A stretch of DNA of 64,000 nucleotides, taken from a virus. Position numbers and translations under genes: made by a program. The stretch is taken from positions 1 through 64,000 of IMG/VR virus record IMGVR_UViG_3300021197_001203; one strand, 5' to 3'. The notes under the pieces are model-generated. The model worked only from the letters and a program-made list of their open reading frames with translations, did not search any database and was not told the origin of the DNA. Positions 8,793-58,018 of the stretch are shown piece by piece; the stretch's first letter is position 1; each line of letters begins with the position of its first letter.

Positions 8793-9959
8793 TTAAGCAG
8801 ATAAATCTCTCACCTTACCGTGTGCGCCATAGAAGAGTTGCCAAAGGTTGCCCATAGTGTGGAACATTCCCATTTGTCCTAGTCTGTTGATTCCGAATGG
8901 ATCGCCAGTCTCTATACCGGATTCGTGGTATAATGTTGGTTTTGCAGTGCAAAAGTAAAGGTAGTCTGTATCTAAGTAATACATACGACTTAATCCACCG
9001 CTTTCTGAATGAACGTCTTTTGATGGAATTAGTGGGACTCCGTTGTATGTTGCTACAATGAAACCAGCTTCCATGCCCGGTACACCCTTAACGCCATTAA
9101 CGCCGGGTACAACTCTCTTCATCTCAGTAAATCTTTGCTGAGGTTGTAATAGTTGCTGAATCTTTTCTAATGTATCGTAGCCAGTAAGGATAACTTTAGG
9201 CTGTCCTCCACGTTCCCATACACTTCTGAACATTCCGTCCATGATGTTTAGAGACAATGCTCTCTCAGTACCTGAAGCACCTGCATCCACGTTTGCGTCA
9301 TACCATTGTGCAACGCTTCCTGCATTACGGTCAATGTTATATTGGTCGTGATCACCAGCAGCACTTACGTCACCAAAGCTAGTTGTTTCCACGAATGATG
9401 ATGATAGACAACGGTCAATTGACTCAAAGTCGTTTAGTGTTGTATCACGGAAATCAATGTCTTTTAGAAGCATTTTATTGATTGCCTCAGCGTGGTGCTT
9501 TGCCATTTCCATCTTCATGACAGCTCTAGCATCTCCAAGACCATCGTCTTTGTCAGCTAAGAACATTGCAGTTTCAGACAGATCGAATGTATGTGCGACT
9601 GTTCTTGGTTTGTCAGCTACGTGAGCAAAACTTGGTTTGCTTGTTTCAGGCAGTGTACCGTTCTCAGGAAGACCGCCACCAACATCGAATGAAGGTTTGT
9701 CAGTGACTACTCTCCAACCGGATTTTTCCCACGGTTTCTTAGGCAGTATAGAGAACGCATTGAACTCTTGGTTCAGCTGCGACCATACTTTACGACCAAA
9801 TATAGCTTGGTAAGTACCTGTGGTACTGCTCATTAGAGGCGAGTCAGCCTTCAGTAAGTCTGTACCGGAGTATGCCCATGCGTTAGCACCTGCACCAGCC
9901 CCGTAGTATAGACGTTCCATGTCTTCTATTGTTCTCAAATATCCTCTTGATCCACTCAT
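8793..9959 (-). CDS. Major capsid protein (HK97 fold)
   Basis: 388 aa, directly after the protease/scaffold. Motifs GGGLPENGTLPET, KHHAEAINKMLL, FESIDR and YNGVPLIPSKD are typical of archaeal tailed-virus MCPs. Confidence 0.88.
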   Translation of the reverse strand: MSGSRGYLRTIEDMERLYYGAGAGANAWAYSGTDLLKADSPLMSSTTGTYQAIFGRKVWSQLNQEFNAFSILPKKPWEKSGWRVVTDKPSFDVGGGLPENGTLPETSKPSFAHVADKPRTVAHTFDLSETAMFLADKDDGLGDARAVMKMEMAKHHAEAINKMLLKDIDFRDTTLNDFESIDRCLSSSFVETTSFGDVSAAGDHDQYNIDRNAGSVAQWYDANVDAGASGTERALSLNIMDGMFRSVWERGGQPKVILTGYDTLEKIQQLLQPQQRFTEMKRVVPGVNGVKGVPGMEAGFIVATYNGVPLIPSKDVHSESGGLSRMYYLDTDYLYFCTAKPTLYHESGIETGDPFGINRLGQMGMFHTMGNLWQLFYGAHGKVRDLSA

Positions 9960-27566: not shown

Positions 27567-28016
27567 TTAGACCTCCTGTTCTCTTTGAGACCTTAATCGC
27601 TCATTACTTCTAATCGTCTTGAAAGAACCTGATACTCTCAATGGTAGGTTAAGATACCAACTTGAAATGATCGGTGTCCTTGCATATGACTTTGCTAAAC
27701 CGATATAAGCATTTTTTAAGTCGCCAAAATGTTTCATAACCTTAGTAAAGGACATAGAATTATCATTATCGTCCAAATAAGAATACACTGCAAAACGAGT
27801 GGACATATTTTCAAAATACAAATCCTGAGATAATTTCTCAGCCTGTTCTTCTAACCCGAAGGGTATCATTGATTCGGCCCATTCTTTGACTACAAAATCA
27901 AGTCCTTCAACCATTATGAAAAAGTCATCCCACGTTTTAGGGAAATCCCCATGTAGGTACGATTCGTAAGGCGTATCACGAAGCTGAAGCTGGACTAAGT
28001 TTTTGTGTCCCGTCAT
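27567..28016 (-). CDS. Hypothetical protein
   Basis: 149-aa ORF with ATGA overlap. Confidence 0.65.
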   Translation of the reverse strand: MTGHKNLVQLQLRDTPYESYLHGDFPKTWDDFFIMVEGLDFVVKEWAESMIPFGLEEQAEKLSQDLYFENMSTRFAVYSYLDDNDNSMSFTKVMKHFGDLKNAYIGLAKSYARTPIISSWYLNLPLRVSGSFKTIRSNERLRSQREQEV

Positions 28017-28720
28017 TCCATCACCCCTGCTTCTGCCAACATTGTTCTAATCACACGCCATTCATCGGGTGCTTTTTCTGAAAAGTATTCCTGCATAATC
28101 GATATGACAGATATGCTTTCACTTTTGTCAATCTCCTTTAGACGGTCCATCCATTTCGCCAATTCACTTAATGTTTCTCTTACTTCTCGGTGCATTTTGA
28201 TAGCTAAGTCTAGGTCTTTAGTCGAAACCATATCGGGATGATTGTGCATTTCTTCGTCAAGGCGGTCAAGGTGTAAAGAAAATATCCTATCGAAACGATT
28301 CATATTTCTCTCTATTCGGTCAAGGGAATCATGAGCTGTTTTCAATGCCGTTGGTATAAGTTCTATATCTGCTTGTTTTTGTATCAATGGTTTTATGTGA
28401 GACTCCATATGGGTACTAACTGCTTCTTCACTGACACCCAATTCTTCTGCAAAATCAATTATTGATGCTCTATGGTCAAGAATAGCCGACTCTATATCTG
28501 CTCGATCAACATTCGTGCATATCGGGCAATCATCATTACTGTCGTTAGAAAAATCCCCAGCGTGTCTTCTCATGTGCCTATGTGCGGAACCTGAAGCCCA
28601 CCCTTGATCTTTATCCAAATCACTAGACACCAGCGTCCCAGCTCTTATCTGCAACTCTAAATGGTCCCGTTCAGGATGATTACAAAAGTCGCAATTATTA
28701 CGAGTCCTCCGACCACCCAT
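28013..28720 (-). CDS. Tandem CxxC-HTH-HxxxH Zn-finger protein with coiled coil (candidate terminase small subunit/DNA-binding)
   Basis: CDFC...HMRRH and CPIC...HMESH units, followed by a helical C-terminus. First gene of the run leading to terL. Confidence 0.55.
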   Translation of the reverse strand: MGGRRTRNNCDFCNHPERDHLELQIRAGTLVSSDLDKDQGWASGSAHRHMRRHAGDFSNDSNDDCPICTNVDRADIESAILDHRASIIDFAEELGVSEEAVSTHMESHIKPLIQKQADIELIPTALKTAHDSLDRIERNMNRFDRIFSLHLDRLDEEMHNHPDMVSTKDLDLAIKMHREVRETLSELAKWMDRLKEIDKSESISVISIMQEYFSEKAPDEWRVIRTMLAEAGVME

Positions 28721-28743: not shown

Positions 28744-29175
28744 TTATTGTGTCTTTTCTTTATATTTGTTCATATGTATGCCACAATAGCCTTTAGACGA
28801 CTCTGCCGACATTCTTCTTTTACACCTGCTGCCGTCAGCGATTGTCCCTATACACCTCTCTTCATCGGTAGGATTCCGATAACATTCAACACATACTCCA
28901 GTTTTGTATTTAGATTTCTTTTTCAAATGTATTCCACACCTGCTGCATACCCTCATTGTTGGTTTCCCGTCTTTAGGAGGGGTAGGTAAAAACGAATCAG
29001 CTAAACCATGTAAATCGTCAAGAGTAATTTTTCCATCATTGTTTCTATCCAATGTGTTTTTGGCCAAGTGTTTTACGTCTTGAAAATTAACTTTACCATC
29101 TTTATTGTAATCAAACGGGGAATAAACTTGTTGGGTATTAGAGTAATAGGGATTTCTTTGTGCCCCGAATCCCAT
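28744..29175 (-). CDS. EF-hand pair plus Zn-finger protein
   Basis: EF loops DYNKDGKVNFQD and DRNNDGKITLDD, then CSRC..CVEC and C....C...CGIH. Confidence 0.75.
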   Translation of the reverse strand: MGFGAQRNPYYSNTQQVYSPFDYNKDGKVNFQDVKHLAKNTLDRNNDGKITLDDLHGLADSFLPTPPKDGKPTMRVCSRCGIHLKKKSKYKTGVCVECYRNPTDEERCIGTIADGSRCKRRMSAESSKGYCGIHMNKYKEKTQ

Positions 29176-29189
29176 TGAAGGGGATGGGG

Positions 29190-29456
29190 CTACCGAAAAG
29201 CCGCATATTGTCTAACAGCTAAGAAGAATGTTAGGAAAACACCCATTATGGCAATCATAGACCATGTTGGGTCCATCGTAGGACCTTTCCATATCATCAC
29301 TGAGGTGATCAAAAGCATGAATGATATAATAAAAATCATCGTTGCACTTTCGACTAACATCTTATTTGGTGCAAACATTTCCATTGTAGTGTCAGTCATT
29401 GTAGTCCCATACGGCCTACTGTTGTATTGATTTCTTTCATTTGTTTTGTCCTGCAT
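29190..29456 (-). CDS. Two-TM membrane protein
   Basis: Two hydrophobic stretches (MIFIISFMLLITSVMIW and WSMIAIMGVFLTFFLAV). Confidence 0.7.
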   Translation of the reverse strand: MQDKTNERNQYNSRPYGTTMTDTTMEMFAPNKMLVESATMIFIISFMLLITSVMIWKGPTMDPTWSMIAIMGVFLTFFLAVRQYAAFR

Positions 29457-29465
29457 TCTAACACC

Positions 29466-30092
29466 TCAAAGTAATGCGGCTGCACCTGCACCCATAGCAC
29501 CCATGCCACCCTGCTGATTCATTTGTTGACCTAAGACGTTTCCTAGAAGACTACCGAAGAAACCGGGTTGGTTCTGACCATTCATCAAAGGGTTGTGGGC
29601 TTGTAATAGCATAGATGTTTGTTGTTGGTTCATTTGTAGCTGGTTATTACAAGACGTTTGTAGTCTTTGTAAAGTCAGACTAAGGTTCTCAGGCGACATA
29701 GTGACCATATTTTGAGGCATGGATGAAAGATCGAGTGTAATTTTGCCTTCTGCATCTGTCAAAAAAGTCACATTACTAAAGAAATCTTTCATTGAAAGCA
29801 TTATTATTTCAGTAAATAAATCCATAAAAGTACCCATGTTGGATGAAACCATGAATGATGAAACAGGGTCATAATACTGTAATAGGCGTGATGTAGCCAT
29901 TACAGGGTCATTCGCCATCTGTTGCATAAACGGATTTTGCATCTGCTGTTGCATCATCATTGGGTCCATACCGCCCATCATATTGTTAGTCATCATTCCT
30001 CCAAAGCCTCCCGCTGCTGCACCAGCACCATATGTGCTAGGTGCCCCGAATTGCTGTGTTGGTGTCGTTGTGTCTTTACTGAACCAGCCCAT
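29466..30092 (-). CDS. Met/Gln/Gly-rich low-complexity protein
   Basis: MGWF N-terminus, MMMQQQMQ tracts and a GFFGSLLG amphipathic segment. Confidence 0.7.
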   Translation of the reverse strand: MGWFSKDTTTPTQQFGAPSTYGAGAAAGGFGGMMTNNMMGGMDPMMMQQQMQNPFMQQMANDPVMATSRLLQYYDPVSSFMVSSNMGTFMDLFTEIIMLSMKDFFSNVTFLTDAEGKITLDLSSMPQNMVTMSPENLSLTLQRLQTSCNNQLQMNQQQTSMLLQAHNPLMNGQNQPGFFGSLLGNVLGQQMNQQGGMGAMGAGAAALL

Positions 30093-30108
30093 TTACTCAT
30101 GTCTCCTT

Positions 30109-31062
30109 CTATTGTGTTTCTAACCCTTTCGCAGTATTTACTACTGGGGGAACTGGATTTTGTTGTTGCTGACCTGCAAGGCCAATCATATTTCGCTGCG
30201 CCATTGCGTCTTCAATTTGTAAAGCTCGCAGGTCAAAAGTCACAGTCACAAGATCAGATATGCCTGTAATTGGATTGGGGTATTGCGTCAAAGTAATACC
30301 CTTCTTGTGTTTAGCATCTTGTTGTATCAAGTTAAAAAACGGCTCATACTTTTTGAGCGATTCAGTTGTTGAACGGTTTGAATTGCTTGAACCAACCATT
30401 CCAGCTGTTAAGGTGGACAAACCCGGAACTTTGAGAAACTTAGTGCCTTTGCTGACTGGTTTGAAACCATCTTCGGCCATTTGGTCCTCCTGAACCATTT
30501 TCTTTAATGTGTGATATATGTGTAAATGGGCAGGGCACAGCGTACTATTCATTTGGTCGCCGTGATCGCCTCTAGTCCTTGCATGAGGTTTTACCGCCTC
30601 TTTCGTAGTTTCATCAAACCAATACAAATCAGCTAAAGACAGATTTATGTCGTAATCAACAATCTGAGCATAGTCGTTGTCCCCCTCAAGGAACCTTCTA
30701 ACATCGACTCCACAACAAGCGCACTCAAATGCTGCATTGTATCTATAAATCCTGTAAAGCCCTAGATTGTAGCTTGGTGGCCTCAAAGCTCTCCTTAACT
30801 TTTTTAGATTCTTTTTGCGGGCCTTTTTAGGGTTCTTCGCATTAGTCACTAATTGTATCTCGACTGTTGGTACGACAGCTTCTTCAAAATTACCCACTGA
30901 ACCCGCACTCGCAATTTCGGCCCTTTGTTGTGTTTTCAACAATTGATAATTTACTCCAGTAGTCGCTGCTAACGCCTTTAATTGTTCATCATTTAGACCC
31001 GATAATCTAGTATTACTATTCCATGAAGGCATGGACGGCATAAAGCTCGGCATGAAGTTCAT
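30109..31062 (-). CDS. Hypothetical Zn-binding protein
   Basis: CACC and CPAH motifs. Likely leaderless start at 31062 (MNFMPSFMPS), with TTTATTTG at 31087-31094. Confidence 0.65.
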   Translation of the reverse strand: MNFMPSFMPSMPSWNSNTRLSGLNDEQLKALAATTGVNYQLLKTQQRAEIASAGSVGNFEEAVVPTVEIQLVTNAKNPKKARKKNLKKLRRALRPPSYNLGLYRIYRYNAAFECACCGVDVRRFLEGDNDYAQIVDYDINLSLADLYWFDETTKEAVKPHARTRGDHGDQMNSTLCPAHLHIYHTLKKMVQEDQMAEDGFKPVSKGTKFLKVPGLSTLTAGMVGSSNSNRSTTESLKKYEPFFNLIQQDAKHKKGITLTQYPNPITGISDLVTVTFDLRALQIEDAMAQRNMIGLAGQQQQNPVPPVVNTAKGLETQ

Positions 31063-31105
31063 ATTAACCCTGCCACCCCTGTCAGCCAAATAAACATACT
31101 GCTGA

Positions 31106-31834
31106 TTACAGGAGTTCAACAATAGATAATAGCACTTTCTCGACATTTACGCCATGTTGTGCCGACATAGCGTCTATTTCAGCCCTAACTCCCGCCTTAC
31201 GGAGTCTTTTCAATTCGCCTCTAAAGGGCGAGATTATAGGGTGTTCTCTCGCTAAACCATTATCCCAAAGTACCTGTGCTTGAGGGGACCACCATAAATC
31301 CATTTTATTAGCAACAATTAACACTAATTTGGGCATATATACTGACTTAGCAGTTTTCTTTGCCTTACGAGATATTTCAGATGATACATCTTTACGTGTT
31401 ATATTGTCCACTAAATAAGTAAAGGATGCTAAAGCATCTTTTAGAAATGCTGGCGAAGTGACTACTCTATGATCAATCATAAACACAACAATTTCGACTT
31501 TTCTTCCAAACATATCTTCGATCCATAAATTACGGAACTGTGCTTGTCCCGCTATGTCAGAATTAGAAATTGGAATCCTTTCTTTTTTCCATCTAATCAA
31601 TTTCCGGTGTGCTTTGGGCTGAACGGGTTTGCCGTTTATTATCGGGTGCGATGTTCTCATTTCAAGGGGTATTGGGTCTATATCACCGGGGACTGTCAGA
31701 TATTGGTCTAGTGTAGTCTTACCCGTCATACTAGGGCCATATATGCCCACCCTGAATGGCCTCATTATCCTGTATATCTTCTGTAAGGCATTAACTGAAG
31801 CTAATAGAAGATGCCCTGCGATAACCGCACTCAT
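31106..31834 (-). CDS. Small Ras-superfamily (Arf/Sar-like) GTPase
   Basis: G1 GPSMTGKT, G2 T (EMRT), G3 DIAGQ followed by Arf-type RNLW, G4 NKMD and G5 SA. Hydrophobic/amphipathic N-terminal helix. Confidence 0.85.
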   Translation of the reverse strand: MSAVIAGHLLLASVNALQKIYRIMRPFRVGIYGPSMTGKTTLDQYLTVPGDIDPIPLEMRTSHPIINGKPVQPKAHRKLIRWKKERIPISNSDIAGQAQFRNLWIEDMFGRKVEIVVFMIDHRVVTSPAFLKDALASFTYLVDNITRKDVSSEISRKAKKTAKSVYMPKLVLIVANKMDLWWSPQAQVLWDNGLAREHPIISPFRGELKRLRKAGVRAEIDAMSAQHGVNVEKVLLSIVELL

Positions 31835-31845
31835 GCCTTAGCCTC

Positions 31846-32067
31846 TCAAAGACGACCTTTGAGGTATTCCCACAATTGTAATGGTGAAGTCCCCAATTCA
31901 TCTAAAATTATCAACACGGCAAAGGTCCCAGCCACACCACCGATAAGTGCCACCGTTGTTCTGACCCATCCGGCCATACGTTCCATTTTTCGTTCATATG
32001 AGTTTTCAGCTAATATTTGCGCCATTTCAGCAGCTTGTCGTTCCTGCCGTGTTGTAAATGGCCACAT
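31846..32067 (-). CDS. Small membrane protein
   Basis: One TM helix, VALIGGVAGTFAVLIIL. Confidence 0.7.
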   Translation of the reverse strand: MWPFTTRQERQAAEMAQILAENSYERKMERMAGWVRTTVALIGGVAGTFAVLIILDELGTSPLQLWEYLKGRL

Positions 32068-32082
32068 TTTCTATCACTCCAA

Positions 32083-32550
32083 TCACTGAGGGGGTTGGTT
32101 GTCTTCAGTGTTAGCGGGTGCATTAGGGAGGCCAAAAAGCTGTTGGCCTTCAGCCTGTGCTTGCATTTGCGCCATTTGTTGTTGCATTTCCCCATAATAT
32201 TGTTGTTTTTGCATTCTTCTATTCTGCATTTGCATTTGATTTCTAAACCATTTGTCGTAGCTGGCTTCTTTTGAAAACTCGGCTCTCATGGCCATACTGT
32301 CTCTTACACCACCTACTTGGAATAAAACCATAGCTATACACAAAAATCCGAATGAGATCAAACCATACTGAATACCCATCTCTCCGGCCCCAGCATCAGG
32401 TAAATACCAACCTTGATGCGACAAACCCACAGCCATACCTGTCAACAGGGATTGCCATAGCAACATTGCTATTAAATTAACATCGACTCTATTCGATGCT
32501 GCTGCGTCTGTTGGCGGCTGCCACATTGGTGTTCTTTGTCCCTGATTCAT
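32083..32550 (-). CDS. Two-TM membrane protein with Gln/Met-rich coiled-coil tail
   Basis: LIAMLLWQSLLTGMAVGL and YGLISFGFLCIAMVLF, then QMQMQ...MQQQMAQMQ. Confidence 0.7.
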   Translation of the reverse strand: MNQGQRTPMWQPPTDAAASNRVDVNLIAMLLWQSLLTGMAVGLSHQGWYLPDAGAGEMGIQYGLISFGFLCIAMVLFQVGGVRDSMAMRAEFSKEASYDKWFRNQMQMQNRRMQKQQYYGEMQQQMAQMQAQAEGQQLFGLPNAPANTEDNQPPQ

Positions 32551-32751
32551 TATATCATGTTCTCCTTGTCTCTAATGTGCTTGAAATACATCTCAAGTGC
32601 ATGATTGACAAAGGAAGATTTGGACTCACGCCCTCTAGTTTTTTCCATTTTCCGGTAAAGATCGTCCCTCATCACCACTGAAACGTGTTGGCTCATTATA
32701 GTGTGTGATACGTGTTAGGTTTAAGACAGTTGTCATATATAACAAGGTTAA

Positions 32752-35067
32752 TTAAGCGATTTTTCTGCCGCTTTGCGATTCTCGGATAGAGTTTTGTTGT
32801 ATTACTCGGAATATGTCATCTAATGCTTGACCATGTTCCATGTAAGATGTGTTTTCGTTTTCTCTTCTGAAACACATCCGGCATCCCATTTCACCAGTCA
32901 TTGGGTCAATATTCATGTCGCATTTTGTATCTGCACCGGGGAGTGATGCCGGACAAACCTGCTGCCGACTATTACCGCCAAAACCTTTCGGTGTTATCGT
33001 GCTTGTTGTAATTCCGGGGGATTCTAAAATCGAAGCGATGTCACCAACCCTGTCATTTCGTCCTTCTTTGCCCTTATACCACTCAGGTTCCTTGTCAATA
33101 GAAATCCTCATTGTTGCATTATCGGGCAAATGAGACTCTTGTGTCCCCCCTCTAGCCTCCATAGCCTCTCTTATGTATTGAGCTTGGCGTGAAGAAATCC
33201 AATGTTCTAAGTCTCGTAATTCTCTTGGGGTTTGTTGTTGTAGGAGATCGAAATAAGCTGAAACTTCACCGGGGCCTCTAAAATCTCCTGAAGCCTTTCC
33301 TCTAACATAACCCTTACCTGCAAGGTGTTTAGGCGCATTTCTTTTATTATTTGCGGTTTTCATCGCTTCAGAATACATTTCATTTTGCATGGCTGAAAGA
33401 TATTTAGGCATATCATTAAGAGAATTGTATAGATTACGGTGATATTTTCTTTGTGGGCCATTAAACGCCATTTTATTTTGAGCAGCATAACATATTTTAC
33501 AGGCCCCAGTTTTCATCGTACAAGCATGAACGGGCATATCCCCCAATGATATTCCGGGCATTTTACCGGGATTACCAAAGCCAGCCATTAACTTCGATTG
33601 TTTGTCGCTGCCCTCCCATGTTGGTATTTCCATCCCTTCTAAGGGATAATCCACTAGATTAGGGTTATCTTTGGGACCAGTGAGCTGTTGAACCTTTTCG
33701 GGGTATAGATTTATGAAATCAATTATATCTCTATTACCCCCCCCATACATCTGACCTTCAGGGCGTGGTGGGCCGTAATTTCCTTTTTTGTCTTTATTCC
33801 ACGGATATGGCACCGCATCCGGCAACTTACCACCGAACAGCTCTTCCCAAAAGAACATTTCACCGGGTTGCCCCCAGTGTTCTGAATCAAATACTGCTTT
33901 AACCAGCCCCCACGCATCTTCAAAGGTATTGTCTTCTGATAGATTAATGATCTGACCGAGCATTGCATTTTCTAATACGTCTCGGCCTGTATTGGTAAAA
34001 TCGCTTTCTCTAGCTAGAATACCATGAGTTGGGGTCACAAGACCCCGTTTCAAACCGAGTTTATCAGGATTGCTGCCTATATTCATAGGCACAGGAACTC
34101 CCTGATGCTTGAAACCTGATGAATCTCTATATGACGGCATTCTCCCTAACTCGTCTAATATTCTCATTATAGGGTCTATTGAGCCTGTCACTTTACTACT
34201 GTAAGGGACACCATCAGTGTGAACATCTGTATCTAAAGAACCAATACGATCACGCCAGTCATAATCATCAACATCTTCTCTATATTCCCTGTTATCAACA
34301 GAATATTTACCTTCTTTTGGGGTCAAATTGGGGTTTTTTGGTGTTGAGAAATCATAACCCACCATTATTAGAGGTCTGCCCGTTTCTTTATCCCAGCCCT
34401 GCATCGCCCCTTTCTTATCCCTGAAAAGGTCAACATCGTCCCCCCAATCTTGTAGCAACCGGGATTGGTCTAAACCTTCACCCAAAATATCAGATAATTC
34501 CCCGCGGCCTAGATTGCCGTGAACCCACATATGTTCATTTTTCTTACCATCGGCTTTTCTTTGACCATCAATTCTATGAGACCTAGACTGTGCGCCTCTC
34601 GATACATTAAATCTAGGGTCGTCTAAAGGGGTAGCATTAGAAGCCGCTAATGTTGTAAAACGCCCTTGTTTTTGAGGGTCTTCATCAAACCTTCTTTGTA
34701 ATGAGTGCATACCGCCTAAAGCTGGAAAATATTCACCACCAATTAAAGTAGGTGACGGAAGCGTATTACGTCCCGTAAATTGATTATTCCTAAACAAACG
34801 AGTGTTGTAGTCCCCAAAACGGTCTTTAGCAAACCGTGGTATAGCTAATCTGTCTCTCAATAATCGGCTCATACTCCTATGCGACCTTTTATCATCTAAT
34901 AAAGGATAAATAACTTCTCTAAGTGGATTTATTGTTGATTCTATACGGTCCACTGGGGTACGCTGCTGCCCCATTAACGCCCTAGTATTGAACCCATCAA
35001 TTGTAGCCCCGTCAAAGTCTAATGCAGTTTTCCAGCTCTTTTCAAAGAGACTGTCGTCACTGCCCAT
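32752..35067 (-). CDS. Doubly tagged protein with C-terminal GP88-like (Cys-rich, radical-SAM-like) domain
   Basis: N-terminal FEKSW tag and internal FEDAWGLVK tag. GP88-like motifs KMPG..C......C..CYA, VR...SGDF, W..SR, N..MRIS and CP...C...C..CF. Confidence 0.7.
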   Translation of the reverse strand: MGSDDSLFEKSWKTALDFDGATIDGFNTRALMGQQRTPVDRIESTINPLREVIYPLLDDKRSHRSMSRLLRDRLAIPRFAKDRFGDYNTRLFRNNQFTGRNTLPSPTLIGGEYFPALGGMHSLQRRFDEDPQKQGRFTTLAASNATPLDDPRFNVSRGAQSRSHRIDGQRKADGKKNEHMWVHGNLGRGELSDILGEGLDQSRLLQDWGDDVDLFRDKKGAMQGWDKETGRPLIMVGYDFSTPKNPNLTPKEGKYSVDNREYREDVDDYDWRDRIGSLDTDVHTDGVPYSSKVTGSIDPIMRILDELGRMPSYRDSSGFKHQGVPVPMNIGSNPDKLGLKRGLVTPTHGILARESDFTNTGRDVLENAMLGQIINLSEDNTFEDAWGLVKAVFDSEHWGQPGEMFFWEELFGGKLPDAVPYPWNKDKKGNYGPPRPEGQMYGGGNRDIIDFINLYPEKVQQLTGPKDNPNLVDYPLEGMEIPTWEGSDKQSKLMAGFGNPGKMPGISLGDMPVHACTMKTGACKICYAAQNKMAFNGPQRKYHRNLYNSLNDMPKYLSAMQNEMYSEAMKTANNKRNAPKHLAGKGYVRGKASGDFRGPGEVSAYFDLLQQQTPRELRDLEHWISSRQAQYIREAMEARGGTQESHLPDNATMRISIDKEPEWYKGKEGRNDRVGDIASILESPGITTSTITPKGFGGNSRQQVCPASLPGADTKCDMNIDPMTGEMGCRMCFRRENENTSYMEHGQALDDIFRVIQQNSIRESQSGRKIA

Positions 35068-35398
35068 AGTGATACTAGGGCATACCATTCATCAAAAGTC
35101 TGCCGGACATTTATAGACGATTGCAGAACATAATATTCTTTGCAGGGGGGGCTATTCATTTGTCTCGTCCCATTTTTTTGACACACCCCTATTGGTAGGC
35201 TGCAACCTAAACCAACCCCCCCCTGCACCTTCTAGTGCAGTTTGTTGATTTCATCAGCAATTTTTCCCAAAATATCAAAAACCTTCAAGGGAACGTACAA
35301 CACAAACAAGAAGGTGCCCACTATGAATAATAATAATAATTCTTTCAACATGGATTTAGAAGACATAAACAAAGCGCATACAATAGCATTTTTATTCT

Positions 35399-36274
35399 TT
35401 GCTGAGGATTATAACGCCAGCAATACAACTTTTGATTCTAGTTTTTATGATCATAGTTAATACTGATCGTAAGCTCAGACAAAGTATGAAAAAACCTGCG
35501 AGGGTCACTAAACTAATACAAAAAACCAAAACATTAGACCCTTCAAATAACGAACCAGCCACGGTTTTAAGTGCAAATAAGGTCACTGGTTGGTCTTTGA
35601 ACTTCCCTATACAAAAGACCTGTCAGCCGTCTAAGCTGTGCATAGAAACCTGCTACTTCGCTTCAGGCATGACGACATGGACAAACTCGTTAAGGAAACA
35701 GCTATGGAATTACGAGTCTTGTGTCGAAGACCCAATTGCCTTTGCTGAAAACATAATATCTGAATATGATAAGAAAATAAAAGGTAAAACAGATTTCTTA
35801 AGATGGAACGGGGGCGGAGATTTGTTTTTTGAATCGACTGAAGCATTGAATTACATCGGTCAAACTAGACCCGACATAGTAATTTGGATAGTCACTAGAA
35901 GGCCCGATATGGCAAAAAGAATAGAGAACCATCCGAATCTCTATGTCCATTTCAGTCTTGATCGAGAATCTATGACTAGAAGAAAAACCGTACTGCCATT
36001 ATTAACCCCTGAAATGCGTAAAAGAGTATTCTTTTCGTATCAAACCGCAGCAGGTGAAGAGCCTGATATGACAAAATTGATTAAAGAGGGGGTAAAATTG
36101 TTCTTTTTTGATAATTATAGGGTGCCTTTAGGTACATATTGGGCAGTAAAAGAAGAAAAAGGGGCTAGATGGGATGCGTTGTGTCCACTCAATAAGATGA
36201 GAAGTGAAGGTAAAGACATAGAAGGTGCCTGTAATGCTTGTCGAAGATGTTTCGATGGTAGCTGGGAACAGTAG
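35399..36274 (+). CDS. GP88-family protein
   Basis: TC.PSKLC.ETCY, LRWNGGGDL, WIVTR, PNLYVHFSLD and CP...C..C..CF. The true start is likely the ATG at 35447 or 35486. Confidence 0.72.
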   Translation: MLRIITPAIQLLILVFMIIVNTDRKLRQSMKKPARVTKLIQKTKTLDPSNNEPATVLSANKVTGWSLNFPIQKTCQPSKLCIETCYFASGMTTWTNSLRKQLWNYESCVEDPIAFAENIISEYDKKIKGKTDFLRWNGGGDLFFESTEALNYIGQTRPDIVIWIVTRRPDMAKRIENHPNLYVHFSLDRESMTRRKTVLPLLTPEMRKRVFFSYQTAAGEEPDMTKLIKEGVKLFFFDNYRVPLGTYWAVKEEKGARWDALCPLNKMRSEGKDIEGACNACRRCFDGSWEQ

Positions 36275-56383: not shown

Positions 56384-58018
56384 ATGGGACGAGATGAACA
56401 ACCAATATATGTATTGAATCAAAACATAGACCGCAAACAAGGCAGGACAGCACAGCGCAGTAATATAGCTGCGGCCAAAGCAGTAGCTGAAGCTGTTCGA
56501 TCAACATTAGGGCCAAGCGGTTCTGATAAGATGTTGGTATCAGGAGAGGGTAAAAGCGTCATAATAACTAATGATGGTGCTACAATACTGAGAGAGATAG
56601 ATTGCCAACACCCAGCGGGACAGCTTATGATTAGTGTCGCTGAAGTCCAAGAAGAAGTAGCTTATGACGGCACCACAAGCTCGGTTATAGTAGCAGGTAG
56701 TCTATTAGCTGAAGCTGAACAATTAATATCCAAAGGCATACATCCCACTACTATTTGTAAAGGTTTCAAGAGTGCTTCTAAGGTTGCGTTAGAAAAAATT
56801 AAGAGTCAGGCTAAAGATGTTGAAATGATGATGGAGGCTTCAGACCTTGAAAAAGAGGCGGCTCTGTCTATGATTGCTAAAACCGCATTAACTGGTAAAT
56901 CCGCAGAGAGTGAGATTGACCAAATAGCAGGATTAGCTATTGATTCAGTCATGAGAGTAGGTGGAGAGGGTAAAGCGGATTTGGATGACATTAAGATATT
57001 GACATTTTCAGGTGCTAGCTTTGAAGACTCACATATTTTAGATGGAGTGCTTCTTGAAAAAGAGCCAGTGCATAGTCAGATGCCCACATCAGCGAGTGGT
57101 AAAATATTGTGTCTAACATCTGATATTGAAGTTAGAGAATTAAAACAAGAGACTACCCTTTCGATCACAGACCCAAACGCACTAGAACAATTTCTAGCTA
57201 AAGAAGAGGCGGCCTTGTTAGAGATGGTTGATGCTATAAAAGCGTCAAAGAGTAAAATTGTGCTGTGTAAAGGGGCTATTGATGAGTTGGCCCAGCACTA
57301 CTTACAGAATGCAGGAATTATAGCTGTGAACCGTGTGAAAATGTCAGACCTTCAATTAGTTTGTAAATCCACAGGGGCAAAGCTAGTCAATTCTTTGAAA
57401 GATATTAGTCAGAAGGATTTAGGAGATGGTGCTACCGATGTAGTGGAGTATGGTGATCATAAATGCCTACACATATATGGCGAAAACGCCAACAATCCTT
57501 CACCTGTTTCAGCTGTTTTACGAGGTGTTAGCTCTCATACAGCCGAAGAGTTAGAACGAGCTTTTGATGATACTGTGGGGGTTGTTTCCGTTGCTTATAT
57601 TAATAATCAATTTTTAGTGGGTGGCGGGGCATCATACATGGGTTTGTCAAAGGAATTGAATAGCTATGCAAAGTCTGTTGGTGGACGTGAACAAATGGCC
57701 GTTGAAGCGTTTGCTAGAGCATTAGAGAGTGTCCCAATAACATTAGCCGAGAATGCTGGTGCTGATGCCGTTGATGTTATGATTCAGTTGAGGCACGTTG
57801 TCGCTAATAATCCCCGTTCAGTTCACGGTATTGACATGAGTGGTAAAGTAAGTAATATTCTAACCGAGAAGGTCATAGAGCCAGCGATAGTCATCGAATC
57901 AGCAGTTAAATCGGCTACTGAAGCAGCTGTGTCTATTCTGAGGATTGACGATGTTTTGAGTATGAAGCCAGCTGGTGGGCCTATGGGTGGTATGCCTAGT
58001 ATGGGTGGTATGGGCTAA
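56384..58018 (+). CDS. ths: Group II chaperonin (thermosome subunit)
   Basis: STLGP.G.DKM, ITNDGATIL, DGTTS, GGGA, LAENAG and ILRIDD motifs, with a GGM tail. Leaderless, with TTAATAAT at 56353-56360. Confidence 0.95.
   Translation: MGRDEQPIYVLNQNIDRKQGRTAQRSNIAAAKAVAEAVRSTLGPSGSDKMLVSGEGKSVIITNDGATILREIDCQHPAGQLMISVAEVQEEVAYDGTTSSVIVAGSLLAEAEQLISKGIHPTTICKGFKSASKVALEKIKSQAKDVEMMMEASDLEKEAALSMIAKTALTGKSAESEIDQIAGLAIDSVMRVGGEGKADLDDIKILTFSGASFEDSHILDGVLLEKEPVHSQMPTSASGKILCLTSDIEVRELKQETTLSITDPNALEQFLAKEEAALLEMVDAIKASKSKIVLCKGAIDELAQHYLQNAGIIAVNRVKMSDLQLVCKSTGAKLVNSLKDISQKDLGDGATDVVEYGDHKCLHIYGENANNPSPVSAVLRGVSSHTAEELERAFDDTVGVVSVAYINNQFLVGGGASYMGLSKELNSYAKSVGGREQMAVEAFARALESVPITLAENAGADAVDVMIQLRHVVANNPRSVHGIDMSGKVSNILTEKVIEPAIVIESAVKSATEAAVSILRIDDVLSMKPAGGPMGGMPSMGGMG

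Follow-up and report, generated by a model that had tools for sequence, protein, structure and literature searches.

Could a tailed virus of marine archaea carry its own Arf-like GTPase switch and, if so, which step of the infection would it serve? The question is raised by the window analysed here, that is, the whole stretch of 64,000 nucleotides that forms the first 64 kb of the 108,315-bp IMG/VR virus record IMGVR_UViG_3300021197_001203 (completeness rating 100%). Seven tightly packed open reading frames (ORFs) on the minus strand, termed g1 to g7 in this text, fill positions 28744-32550, exactly where an initial annotation, made from the sequence without database searches, had placed seven co-oriented genes and had suspected a module for membrane remodelling, lysis or egress. 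The third of them, g3 (31106-31834, minus strand), encodes a 242-amino-acid (aa) divergent Arf-like small GTPase with a hydrophobic or amphipathic N-terminal helix, as judged by motifs, alignment and fold. It is followed by g4 (30109-31062, minus strand), which encodes a 317-aa Cys/His protein, and by g5 (29466-30092, minus strand), which encodes a 208-aa Met/Gln/Gly-rich protein. How tailed archaeal viruses exit their cells without pyramid structures has not been resolved (PMC10791045), and a GTPase in such a place is of interest in this respect.

Here, we report that, by sequence comparison, the triad of GTPase, g4 and g5 is conserved across deeply split viral lineages, with proteins of two and of one transmembrane (TM) segment alongside. 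A membrane-acting, nucleotide-timed GTP switch, working late and most plausibly for virion egress, is the reading that we tentatively put forward for it, on the basis of architecture, position and analogy.

A genuine small GTPase of Arf-like type

In an alignment of 23 relatives (42-81% identity), the G1 P-loop reads GPSMTGKT, and G33, G38, K39, T40 and T41 are invariant, as are T61 of G2, D93 and G96 of G3, W104, and N176, K177 and D179 of G4; G5 reads SAQ, with A222 nearly invariant. Switch II of the window protein, DIAGQAQFRNLW, follows the Arf-type pattern DxxGQxxFRNLW, in which N102 is nearly invariant. When the count was widened to 232 unique homologues, G1 was retained in 221, G3 in 227 and G4 in 228 (about 95-98%), and the exceptions are mostly truncated ORF calls. 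The five intact G motifs and the Arf-type switch II read earlier in the window protein are consequently upheld for that protein, but across the family the Gln that follows DxxG varies. At this position (residue 97), Q is the commonest residue, and whole clades carry E (about 30), D (about 29) or H (4); the chemistry of GTP hydrolysis may vary between the viral lineages. It was also observed that TKKD replaces NKxD in six family members.

Two inserts distinguish the protein, namely a basic one between G3 and G4, ISRKAKK (about 153-160), and a Trp-rich one (W181, W182 and W190) after the G4 motif NKMD. In the AlphaFold2 model (pLDDT 75.5), a helix at residues 2-24 is followed by the G domain, and both inserts, the basic one as a helix, are modelled confidently. 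The N-terminal helix has a hydrophobic moment of about 0.45-0.5 and a mean hydropathy under the TM threshold. A hydrophobic N-terminus is found in the viral lineages A, B and C described below, whereas its sequence is not conserved.

The fold is that of a small GTPase. VIA-align gave Z-scores of 10-12.3 and root-mean-square deviations of 3.0-3.5 over 145-158 residues to many small GTPases, and the top scores, those of Galpha (12.3), LokiRag (12.3), SRbeta (12.2), Arf6 (11.9), Arl2 (11.8) and Arl8 (11.8), lie within one unit, with Sar1 lower at 10.9. Foldseek returned 311 matches at E <=1e-3, and those listed are all GTPases. By sequence, the best match in the Protein Data Bank (PDB) is 8oun, an Asgard Arf-like protein (E 1e-4 with the single sequence and 7e-6 with the profile), followed by Arl8, Arl6 and Arf1. 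The Pfam Arf model (PF00025) matches the window protein over residues 72-123 only, at 19.3 bits (E 8e-4), and the cut-off of 22.3 bits is not reached. Among the 23 family members, 14 match Arf, 12 match Roc, 10 match Ras and 3 match Gtr1_RagA; the best E-value is 1.4e-4 for Arf and 3e-6 for Gtr1_RagA, the latter being the best of all families. Four distant relatives (P0178, P0185, P0191 and P0196) do exceed the Pfam Arf cut-off, at 27-38 bits. It should be noted that this model has low specificity and exceeds its cut-off in 12 of 14 control bacterial and archaeal genomes; these matches are therefore not taken as strong proof of Arf membership.

With its G motifs intact and its fold matched, g3 is a genuine small GTPase. 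Sequence and model suggest that it is best called Arf-like, similar to the branch of Arf, SRbeta, Galpha and Rag. We use the term Arf-like only and do not assign the protein to Arf proper, given a Pfam score under the cut-off and fold matches to SRbeta, Galpha and Rag that equal those to Arf; of the Arf/Sar-like identity given to it in the initial annotation, the likeness is retained. To call such proteins typical of eukaryotes and Asgard archaea, as had been done, is overstated, since Arf-like G domains also form bacterial clusters and Haloferax has the small GTPase ArvA (PMC10927574). The only existing annotation of the GTPase is an automatic JGI label, 'GTPase SAR1 family protein', and no family related to it was found in PHROGs.

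Distribution and viral origin

Then, is the GTPase a gene of the virus or of the host? Relatives are encoded by more than 400 IMG/VR contigs, 257 of the window type, 140 of the P0123 type and 4 of the P0117 type. A profile search against 1.84 billion representative proteins gave only 89 matches at E <=1e-3. The full-length close matches among these come from marine contigs of 60-117 kb, and the most distant are Arf-like singletons scoring above the cut-off of Pfam Arf. The family profile had no match in 60 Poseidoniales genomes other than AG-422-I20, where it lies on a viral contig, and INPHARED phage records gave no match to the GTPase. For two far relatives, P0161 and P0148, no loci were found in viral or metagenome contig collections.

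A tree was built from the proteins recovered by these searches, without curated references for Arf, Sar1, Rag, Roc, MglA or ArvA. In this tree, each of five viral GTPase lineages (A, A2, B, C and D) has full support, and together they form one clade (99/97) apart from the distant Arf-like proteins, with internal branches of 0.4-1.2 changes per site. Judged by this distribution and tree, the GTPase is an old viral gene and not a host gene.

Conservation of the cassette

Are the neighbours of the GTPase conserved along with it? Three of them encode small TM proteins according to hydropathy: g1 (32083-32550, minus strand), of 155 aa, has two TM segments (26-44 and 64-82) and a Gln/Met-rich C-terminal tail; g2 (31846-32067, minus strand), of 73 aa, has one (37-55) and a basic N-terminal helix; and g6 (29190-29456, minus strand), of 88 aa, has two (37-55 and 63-81) and a short basic C-terminus. 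These numbers of TM segments are the ones given by the initial annotation, and the other four proteins of the block have none.

Synteny was counted by tblastn in 80 loci of lineages A and A2, and phmmer counts are somewhat higher. The order is the same in these loci, that is, a 48-aa gene, g1, g2, the GTPase gene, g4, g5, g6 and a further gene termed g8. The GTPase and g4 are present in 80/80 loci, and g4 (80-82 of the loci tested) always stands directly after the GTPase gene. Next come g5 (64-65/80), g1 (52-65/80), g2 (53/80) and g6 (52-58/80). Although g8 is found in 79/80 of these loci, it is absent from lineages B and C, and it is therefore treated as context and not as a part of the cassette. 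The EF-hand gene g7 is present in only 16/80 loci, all of close relatives (GTPase identity about 58% or more), and is therefore regarded as an accessory insertion outside the cassette. Consequently, the block of seven genes is reduced to six that are conserved in order (g1-g6), and the Ca2+ timing that had been thought possible finds no support.

In lineage B, two proteins precede the GTPase, one with two TM segments and then one of about 74 aa, and two follow it, of 226 and 236 aa. In hhalign comparisons, the lineage B GTPase matches the window GTPase family with a Prob of 99.9%. Homology also links g4, including its CxxC...CPxH site, to the 226-aa protein (Prob 96.7-96.9%, E 1e-10) and g5 to the 236-aa protein (Prob 93.5-94.6%); the 39 off-diagonal comparisons, which served as controls, all gave 16% or less. 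The two-TM protein of lineage B matches g1 weakly (Prob 13%) and is a positional analogue only, and no g6 was seen in lineage B loci. In lineage C, g1 is followed by a one-TM protein of 70 aa and an additional gene encoding 252 aa, after which come the GTPase, g4, g5 and g6; the hidden Markov model matches have E 1e-14 for g1, 1e-44 for g4, 1e-8 to 1e-11 for g5 and 1e-10 for g6. The position of g2 is held in lineages B and C by a protein of 70-75 aa, which resembles g2 in place and length only. The extra gene of lineage C, of about 250 aa and located between the one-TM and GTPase genes (L170:7241-7999, L175:6435-7181 and L179:7229-7999), has no family match.

Three genomic contexts can be distinguished: the cassette lies upstream of the packaging genes in the window, between the major capsid protein (MCP) gene and the tail genes in lineage B, and beside two glycosyltransferase genes in lineage C. 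Since it stays intact while its surroundings change, it is most simply read as one autonomous functional unit.

Proteins accompanying the GTPase

The Gln/Met-rich tail of g1, the Met/Gln/Gly-rich nature of g5 and the EF-hand of g7, all of them noticed earlier, were confirmed by composition and Pfam. The g1 tail consists of 27% Gln and 10% Met and is probably cytoplasmic. Counting basic residues would place the long tails of both g1 and g2, as well as the two ends of g6, in the cytoplasm, where the GTPase, g4 and g5 would also be.

For g4, the likely start is the ATG at 31062, which gives 317 aa, because a GGGGTGG-type ribosome-binding site precedes it and the homology to relatives begins there; the first ATG would give 345 aa (30109-31146). 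Alignment reveals a conserved basic helix, NPKKARKKNxK, and four conserved residues, C114, C117, C176 and H179 (317-aa numbering), which form a probable Zn site. The model of g4 has a pLDDT of 73, and its best fold match in the PDB has a Z of 4.6, with nothing above; the fold search in BFVD gave only one viral protein (E 2e-5). Fold matches of a homeodomain-like and winged-helix-like kind were also obtained for g4, and at Z <=4.6 they are too weak to be relied on. The predicted complex of the GTPase with g4 (residues 55-290) scored 0.00 and, made without controls, says nothing for or against binding.

The g5 protein contains 13% Met, 11.5% Gln and 10.6% Gly. In the alignment, it starts with MG[WL]F, has a conserved domain in its centre and ends in a hydrophobic, Gly-rich tail; the lineage B homologue is laid out alike, apart from its hydrophobic tail, which differs. 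The ESM Atlas contained no structure for g4 or g5 and no usable match for g5. The start of g5, MG[WL]F, or MGLFGTSN in lineage B, resembles the start of eukaryotic N-myristoylated proteins (MGxxxS/T), and we know of no N-myristoylation in archaea.

The accessory gene g7 (28744-29175, minus strand) encodes a 143-aa protein without TM segments, in which Pfam EF-hand_1 matches two loops at 30.4 bits (cut-off 25.4). It also has a Zn-ribbon-like Cys-rich part, with CxxC...CxxC and a DUF5763-like Cys/His part below the threshold. Among all seven proteins, none matches a holin, endolysin, spanin or muralytic domain in Pfam or PHROGs, and no OapB (PF09846) or DUF2072 match was obtained for the cassette proteins in Pfam or NCBIfam at E up to 1. 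In agreement with the initial annotation, none of the seven carries the cargo-tag motif, an N-terminal tag noted elsewhere in the genome.

The block is headed by the gene of the 48-aa small protein (32550-32696, minus strand), whose stop overlaps the g1 start (ATGA) and which has a relative at the same position in 51 of the 80 related loci. This protein looks like a DNA binder of the ribbon-helix-helix type, with weak matches to NCBIfam PRK13696. About 40 nt upstream of its gene, a TATA-like box, TTATATAT (32736-32743, minus strand), can be read from the sequence as a possible archaeal promoter, and a purine-rich ribosome-binding site stands ahead of each gene of the block. Downstream, g8 (28013-28720, minus strand) encodes a Cys-rich protein of 235 aa, in which residues 70-107 have weak Lrp/ArsR helix-turn-helix matches and the C-terminal half is a coiled coil. 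This gene lies upstream of that of the large terminase, at a distance of about 7 kb. Its product may be a regulator or the small subunit of the terminase, neither being backed by a family match; the latter identity was tried and found no support in PHROG, Pfam or NCBIfam.

The virus and its host

The minus strand of the window also carries the head genes, namely those of the HK97-type MCP (8793-9959), the head maturation protease, the portal and the large terminase subunit. The block is contiguous and co-oriented with these head and packaging genes and not with the replication or early arm. Its genes are called late, here as in the initial annotation, from this co-orientation, which was confirmed; late expression itself is what we infer from it. 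The plus-strand arm includes a thermosome-type chaperonin gene (56384-58018, plus strand; Pfam Cpn60_TCP1, E 3e-136).

Magroviruses of groups A and D, which infect Marine Group II (Poseidoniales), have genomes of about 100 kb, archaeal-virus head genes and a thermosome subunit (Philosof et al., PMC5434244). The window virus fits this description in its genome of about 100 kb, its head genes and its thermosome subunit, and is therefore assigned to the magroviruses, tailed viruses of Marine Group II. Moreover, a contig of 106 kb (106,262 bp) in the Poseidoniales single-cell genome AG-422-I20 encodes a GTPase 59% identical and an MCP 88% identical to those of the window. This contig probably represents a related magrovirus within the cell that it had infected, and would in that case be direct evidence of the host. 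Magroviruses, whose hosts are uncultivated, have been reported to belong to the most abundant surface-ocean viruses (PMC5434244, PMC11706807).

A family GTPase at 56% identity was also seen on NZQM01000063.1 (8,227 bp), binned as a bacterium, 'MAG: Parvibaculum sp.'; this is most likely a mis-binned magrovirus fragment. Elsewhere in the window, two divergent genes, at 32752-35088 (minus strand) and 35399-36274 (plus strand), match Pfam GP88 with E-values of 1e-9 and 4e-21, respectively, and the larger one has an internal copy of the cargo-tag motif at residue 389.

A possible role in virion egress and its alternatives

What, then, could such a cassette do? In Arf, Sar1 and SRbeta, the nucleotide state governs membrane attachment through an N-terminal hydrophobic element. 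By analogy with these proteins, and with the vesicle-forming ArvA of Haloferax (PMC10927574), the cassette would be expressed together with the late genes, and the GTP-bound GTPase would be placed on the cytoplasmic face of the host membrane via its N-terminal hydrophobic helix, the basic and Trp-rich inserts perhaps adding to the attachment. Its switch would gather or release g4, g5 and the small TM proteins, and g4, g5 and the TM proteins would then reshape or breach the membrane, most plausibly to let virions out of a host without a peptidoglycan wall. Egress is favoured because the cassette runs with the late genes, has holin-sized TM proteins and heads the packaging genes here, and because the exit of tailed archaeal viruses has no known mechanism that would account for it (PMC10791045). 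A stronger version of the proposal, in which the cassette is a new kind of egress machine whose Arf-like switch times and places the rupture or budding carried out by three TM and two orphan proteins, is conceivable but doubtful in our view.

A weak hint of transcription comes from three marine metatranscriptomes of one study, in which contigs of 151-307 nt, 99-100% identical, lie on the GTPase gene, g4, the g5/g6 junction and g8. They indicate the presence of a near-identical virus and give no timing. These contigs are assembled, with a depth of 2-6, at which uncovered parts of the block mean nothing.

Several observations weigh against egress by such a switch. Carry-over of DNA into the libraries could account for the RNA contigs. 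The amphipathic N-terminal helix proposed earlier is indeed predicted, but residues 1-12 are modelled at low confidence, and the segment is too short and too mildly hydrophobic for a TM helix. Some clades have E, D or H instead of the catalytic Gln, so that the chemistry of the switch may not be that of Arf. The basic helix of g4, together with a faint homeodomain-like or winged-helix-like resemblance, would allow a role with nucleic acids. None of the cassette proteins has a match to a lysis family of PHROGs, to a holin or muralytic enzyme, or to ArfGAP, OapB or DUF2072. Finally, the position beside or inside the morphogenesis genes fits a role in assembly equally well.

In that case, the GTPase and its partners would act as an organiser of assembly or packaging without a part in release, either marking a membrane-tethered assembly site or chaperoning morphogenesis. 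The location of the cassette directly upstream of the terminase and portal genes in the window, and between MCP and tail genes in lineage B, is what such an organiser would lead one to expect; so are the basic helix, the Zn site and the faint DNA-binding-fold resemblance of g4, and the Gln/Met/Gly-rich low-complexity proteins could form assemblies. We nevertheless consider it unlikely. In lineage C, the cassette is found beside glycosyltransferases, with no recognisable head or tail genes within the 13-17 kb examined, and its place in the morphogenesis region differs between A and B, which fits an autonomous module better. To our knowledge, no HK97-type virus needs a small GTPase for assembly. 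There is likewise only a slim chance that the host membrane is taken over for an end other than release, such as superinfection exclusion, the blocking of a membrane-bound defence or receptor, or an ArvA-like shedding of vesicles as decoys or for receptor removal. A membrane-directed GTPase with TM proteins would be suited to this task, ArvA overexpression leads to hypervesiculation in Haloferax (PMC10927574), and the virus may supply a function that its host lacks, as OapB was not found in the Poseidoniales genomes searched. However, the cassette is co-oriented with structural genes and not with the replication or early arm, PADLOC gave no defence-system match in the block, and the retention of the cassette in every lineage examined suits an essential step better than an accessory function.

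Two further explanations would take the GTPase out of any membrane module. It could be a soluble protein of the housekeeping type, similar to Era, Der, EngB or translation factors and working on ribosomes or RNA, with its membrane neighbours being coincidental. The G domains of Era, EngA, EngB and translation factors are indeed among the fold matches (Z 10-11), and a few family members have weak Pfam matches to MMR_HSR1 or GTP_EFTU, yet Arf-like proteins rank first in the sequence searches, switch II is Arf-like, the protein has no KH or other RNA-binding domain, and chance does not explain a gene order with TM proteins that is kept across branch lengths of 0.4-1.2. We hold this explanation to be very improbable. 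As for a recent and sporadic capture of a host Arf-like gene, with no conserved neighbours or viral function, which the initial annotation had named as the outcome contrary to its proposal, nothing was found in its favour beyond the fact that large viruses sometimes capture small GTPases, such as the mimivirus Rab (5xc5) among the fold matches. It is refuted as far as the databases reach and deserves hardly any credence: the 60 Poseidoniales genomes are negative, the 89 matches among 1.84 billion proteins stand against more than 400 viral contigs, and the synteny is conserved in a deep, well-supported viral clade.

If egress by a GTP switch is true, it would explain for the first time in molecular terms how tailed viruses exit the cells of wall-less marine archaea, and it would be a prokaryotic-virus counterpart of GTPase-driven membrane remodelling in the style of eukaryotes. 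GTPase-controlled membrane remodelling would then extend beyond eukaryotes, Asgard archaea and the haloarchaeal ArvA to viruses of Euryarchaeota. Present in every magrovirus lineage examined, the cassette is a concrete and cloneable candidate for the exit from cells lacking peptidoglycan. Even if its role should be assembly or takeover, g4 and g5 would be new protein families partnering a small GTPase.

Comparison with known systems

The viral GTPase shares with the Arf family (Arf1, Arf6, Arl6, Arl8 and Sar1, and the Asgard entries 8OUN, 8OUM and 8OUL of the PDB) the five G motifs, a switch II in which the Trp is invariant and, as predicted, a helix ahead of the G domain with the potential to bind a membrane; this family also supplies the best PDB sequence matches, and fold matches at Z 10-12. 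However, the identity is only 15-20%, the viral protein has 242 aa with inserts, its Pfam Arf score is below the cut-off, it has no N-terminal Gly for myristoylation, and its catalytic Gln varies. Besides, its gene belongs to a tailed virus whose archaeal host is not an Asgard, and orphan partners replace Sec7 and ArfGAP.

In Haloferax volcanii, vesicles are formed through the action of the small GTPase ArvA along with ArvB and ArvC, the last a Zn-ribbon protein (PMC10927574). This system, ArvABC (OapABC), is similar to the cassette in having a GTPase with a releasable hydrophobic helix followed in the operon by two partners, one of them Zn-binding, and it acts on an archaeal membrane. The two systems differ in that no homology was detected between their partners (g4 and g5 versus OapB, PF09846, and DUF2072), and in that the ArvABC operon as published has no small TM proteins (PMC10927574). 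OapB/ArvB was not found in the 41 Poseidoniales genomes searched for it, so the host may lack the ArvABC route.

SRbeta of the SRP receptor ties with the best fold matches (2fh5_B, Z 12.2; 5ck4_A, Z 12.1). In SRbeta, too, an N-terminal hydrophobic anchor precedes an Arf-like G domain, and distant relatives of the viral family match Pfam SRPRB. In contrast to SRbeta, no SRX or longin partner was recognised in the viral system, the N-terminal segment is shorter than a TM helix, and the context is viral and late, whereas SRbeta serves protein targeting.

Holin cassettes such as lambda S-R-Rz resemble the viral cassette in architecture and position only, with small proteins of one or two TM segments at the head of, or inside, a late array; g6 recalls a class II holin in its size and likely N-in/C-in topology, again in architecture only. 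The lambda lysis genes precede the terminase genes, and the position of the cassette ahead of the packaging genes recalls them. The difference from holin cassettes, as well as from the egress pyramids of PVAP, is that none of the holin, endolysin, spanin or PVAP families is matched in sequence. We know of no lysis system that includes a GTPase.

Small GTPases encoded by viruses or mobile elements are known from giant viruses (the mimivirus Rab, PDB 5XC5) and from the mobile-element-like regions of Asgard archaea, where an Arf GTPase is the nearest published case (PMC11529989); in the magrovirus literature searched, no GTPase is mentioned. Those GTPases are close copies of host-type Rab or Arf proteins, whereas the present one belongs to a deep, virus-only family with conserved partners. 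It is thus a known type of switch in a new and deep viral family, with new partners and in a new setting.

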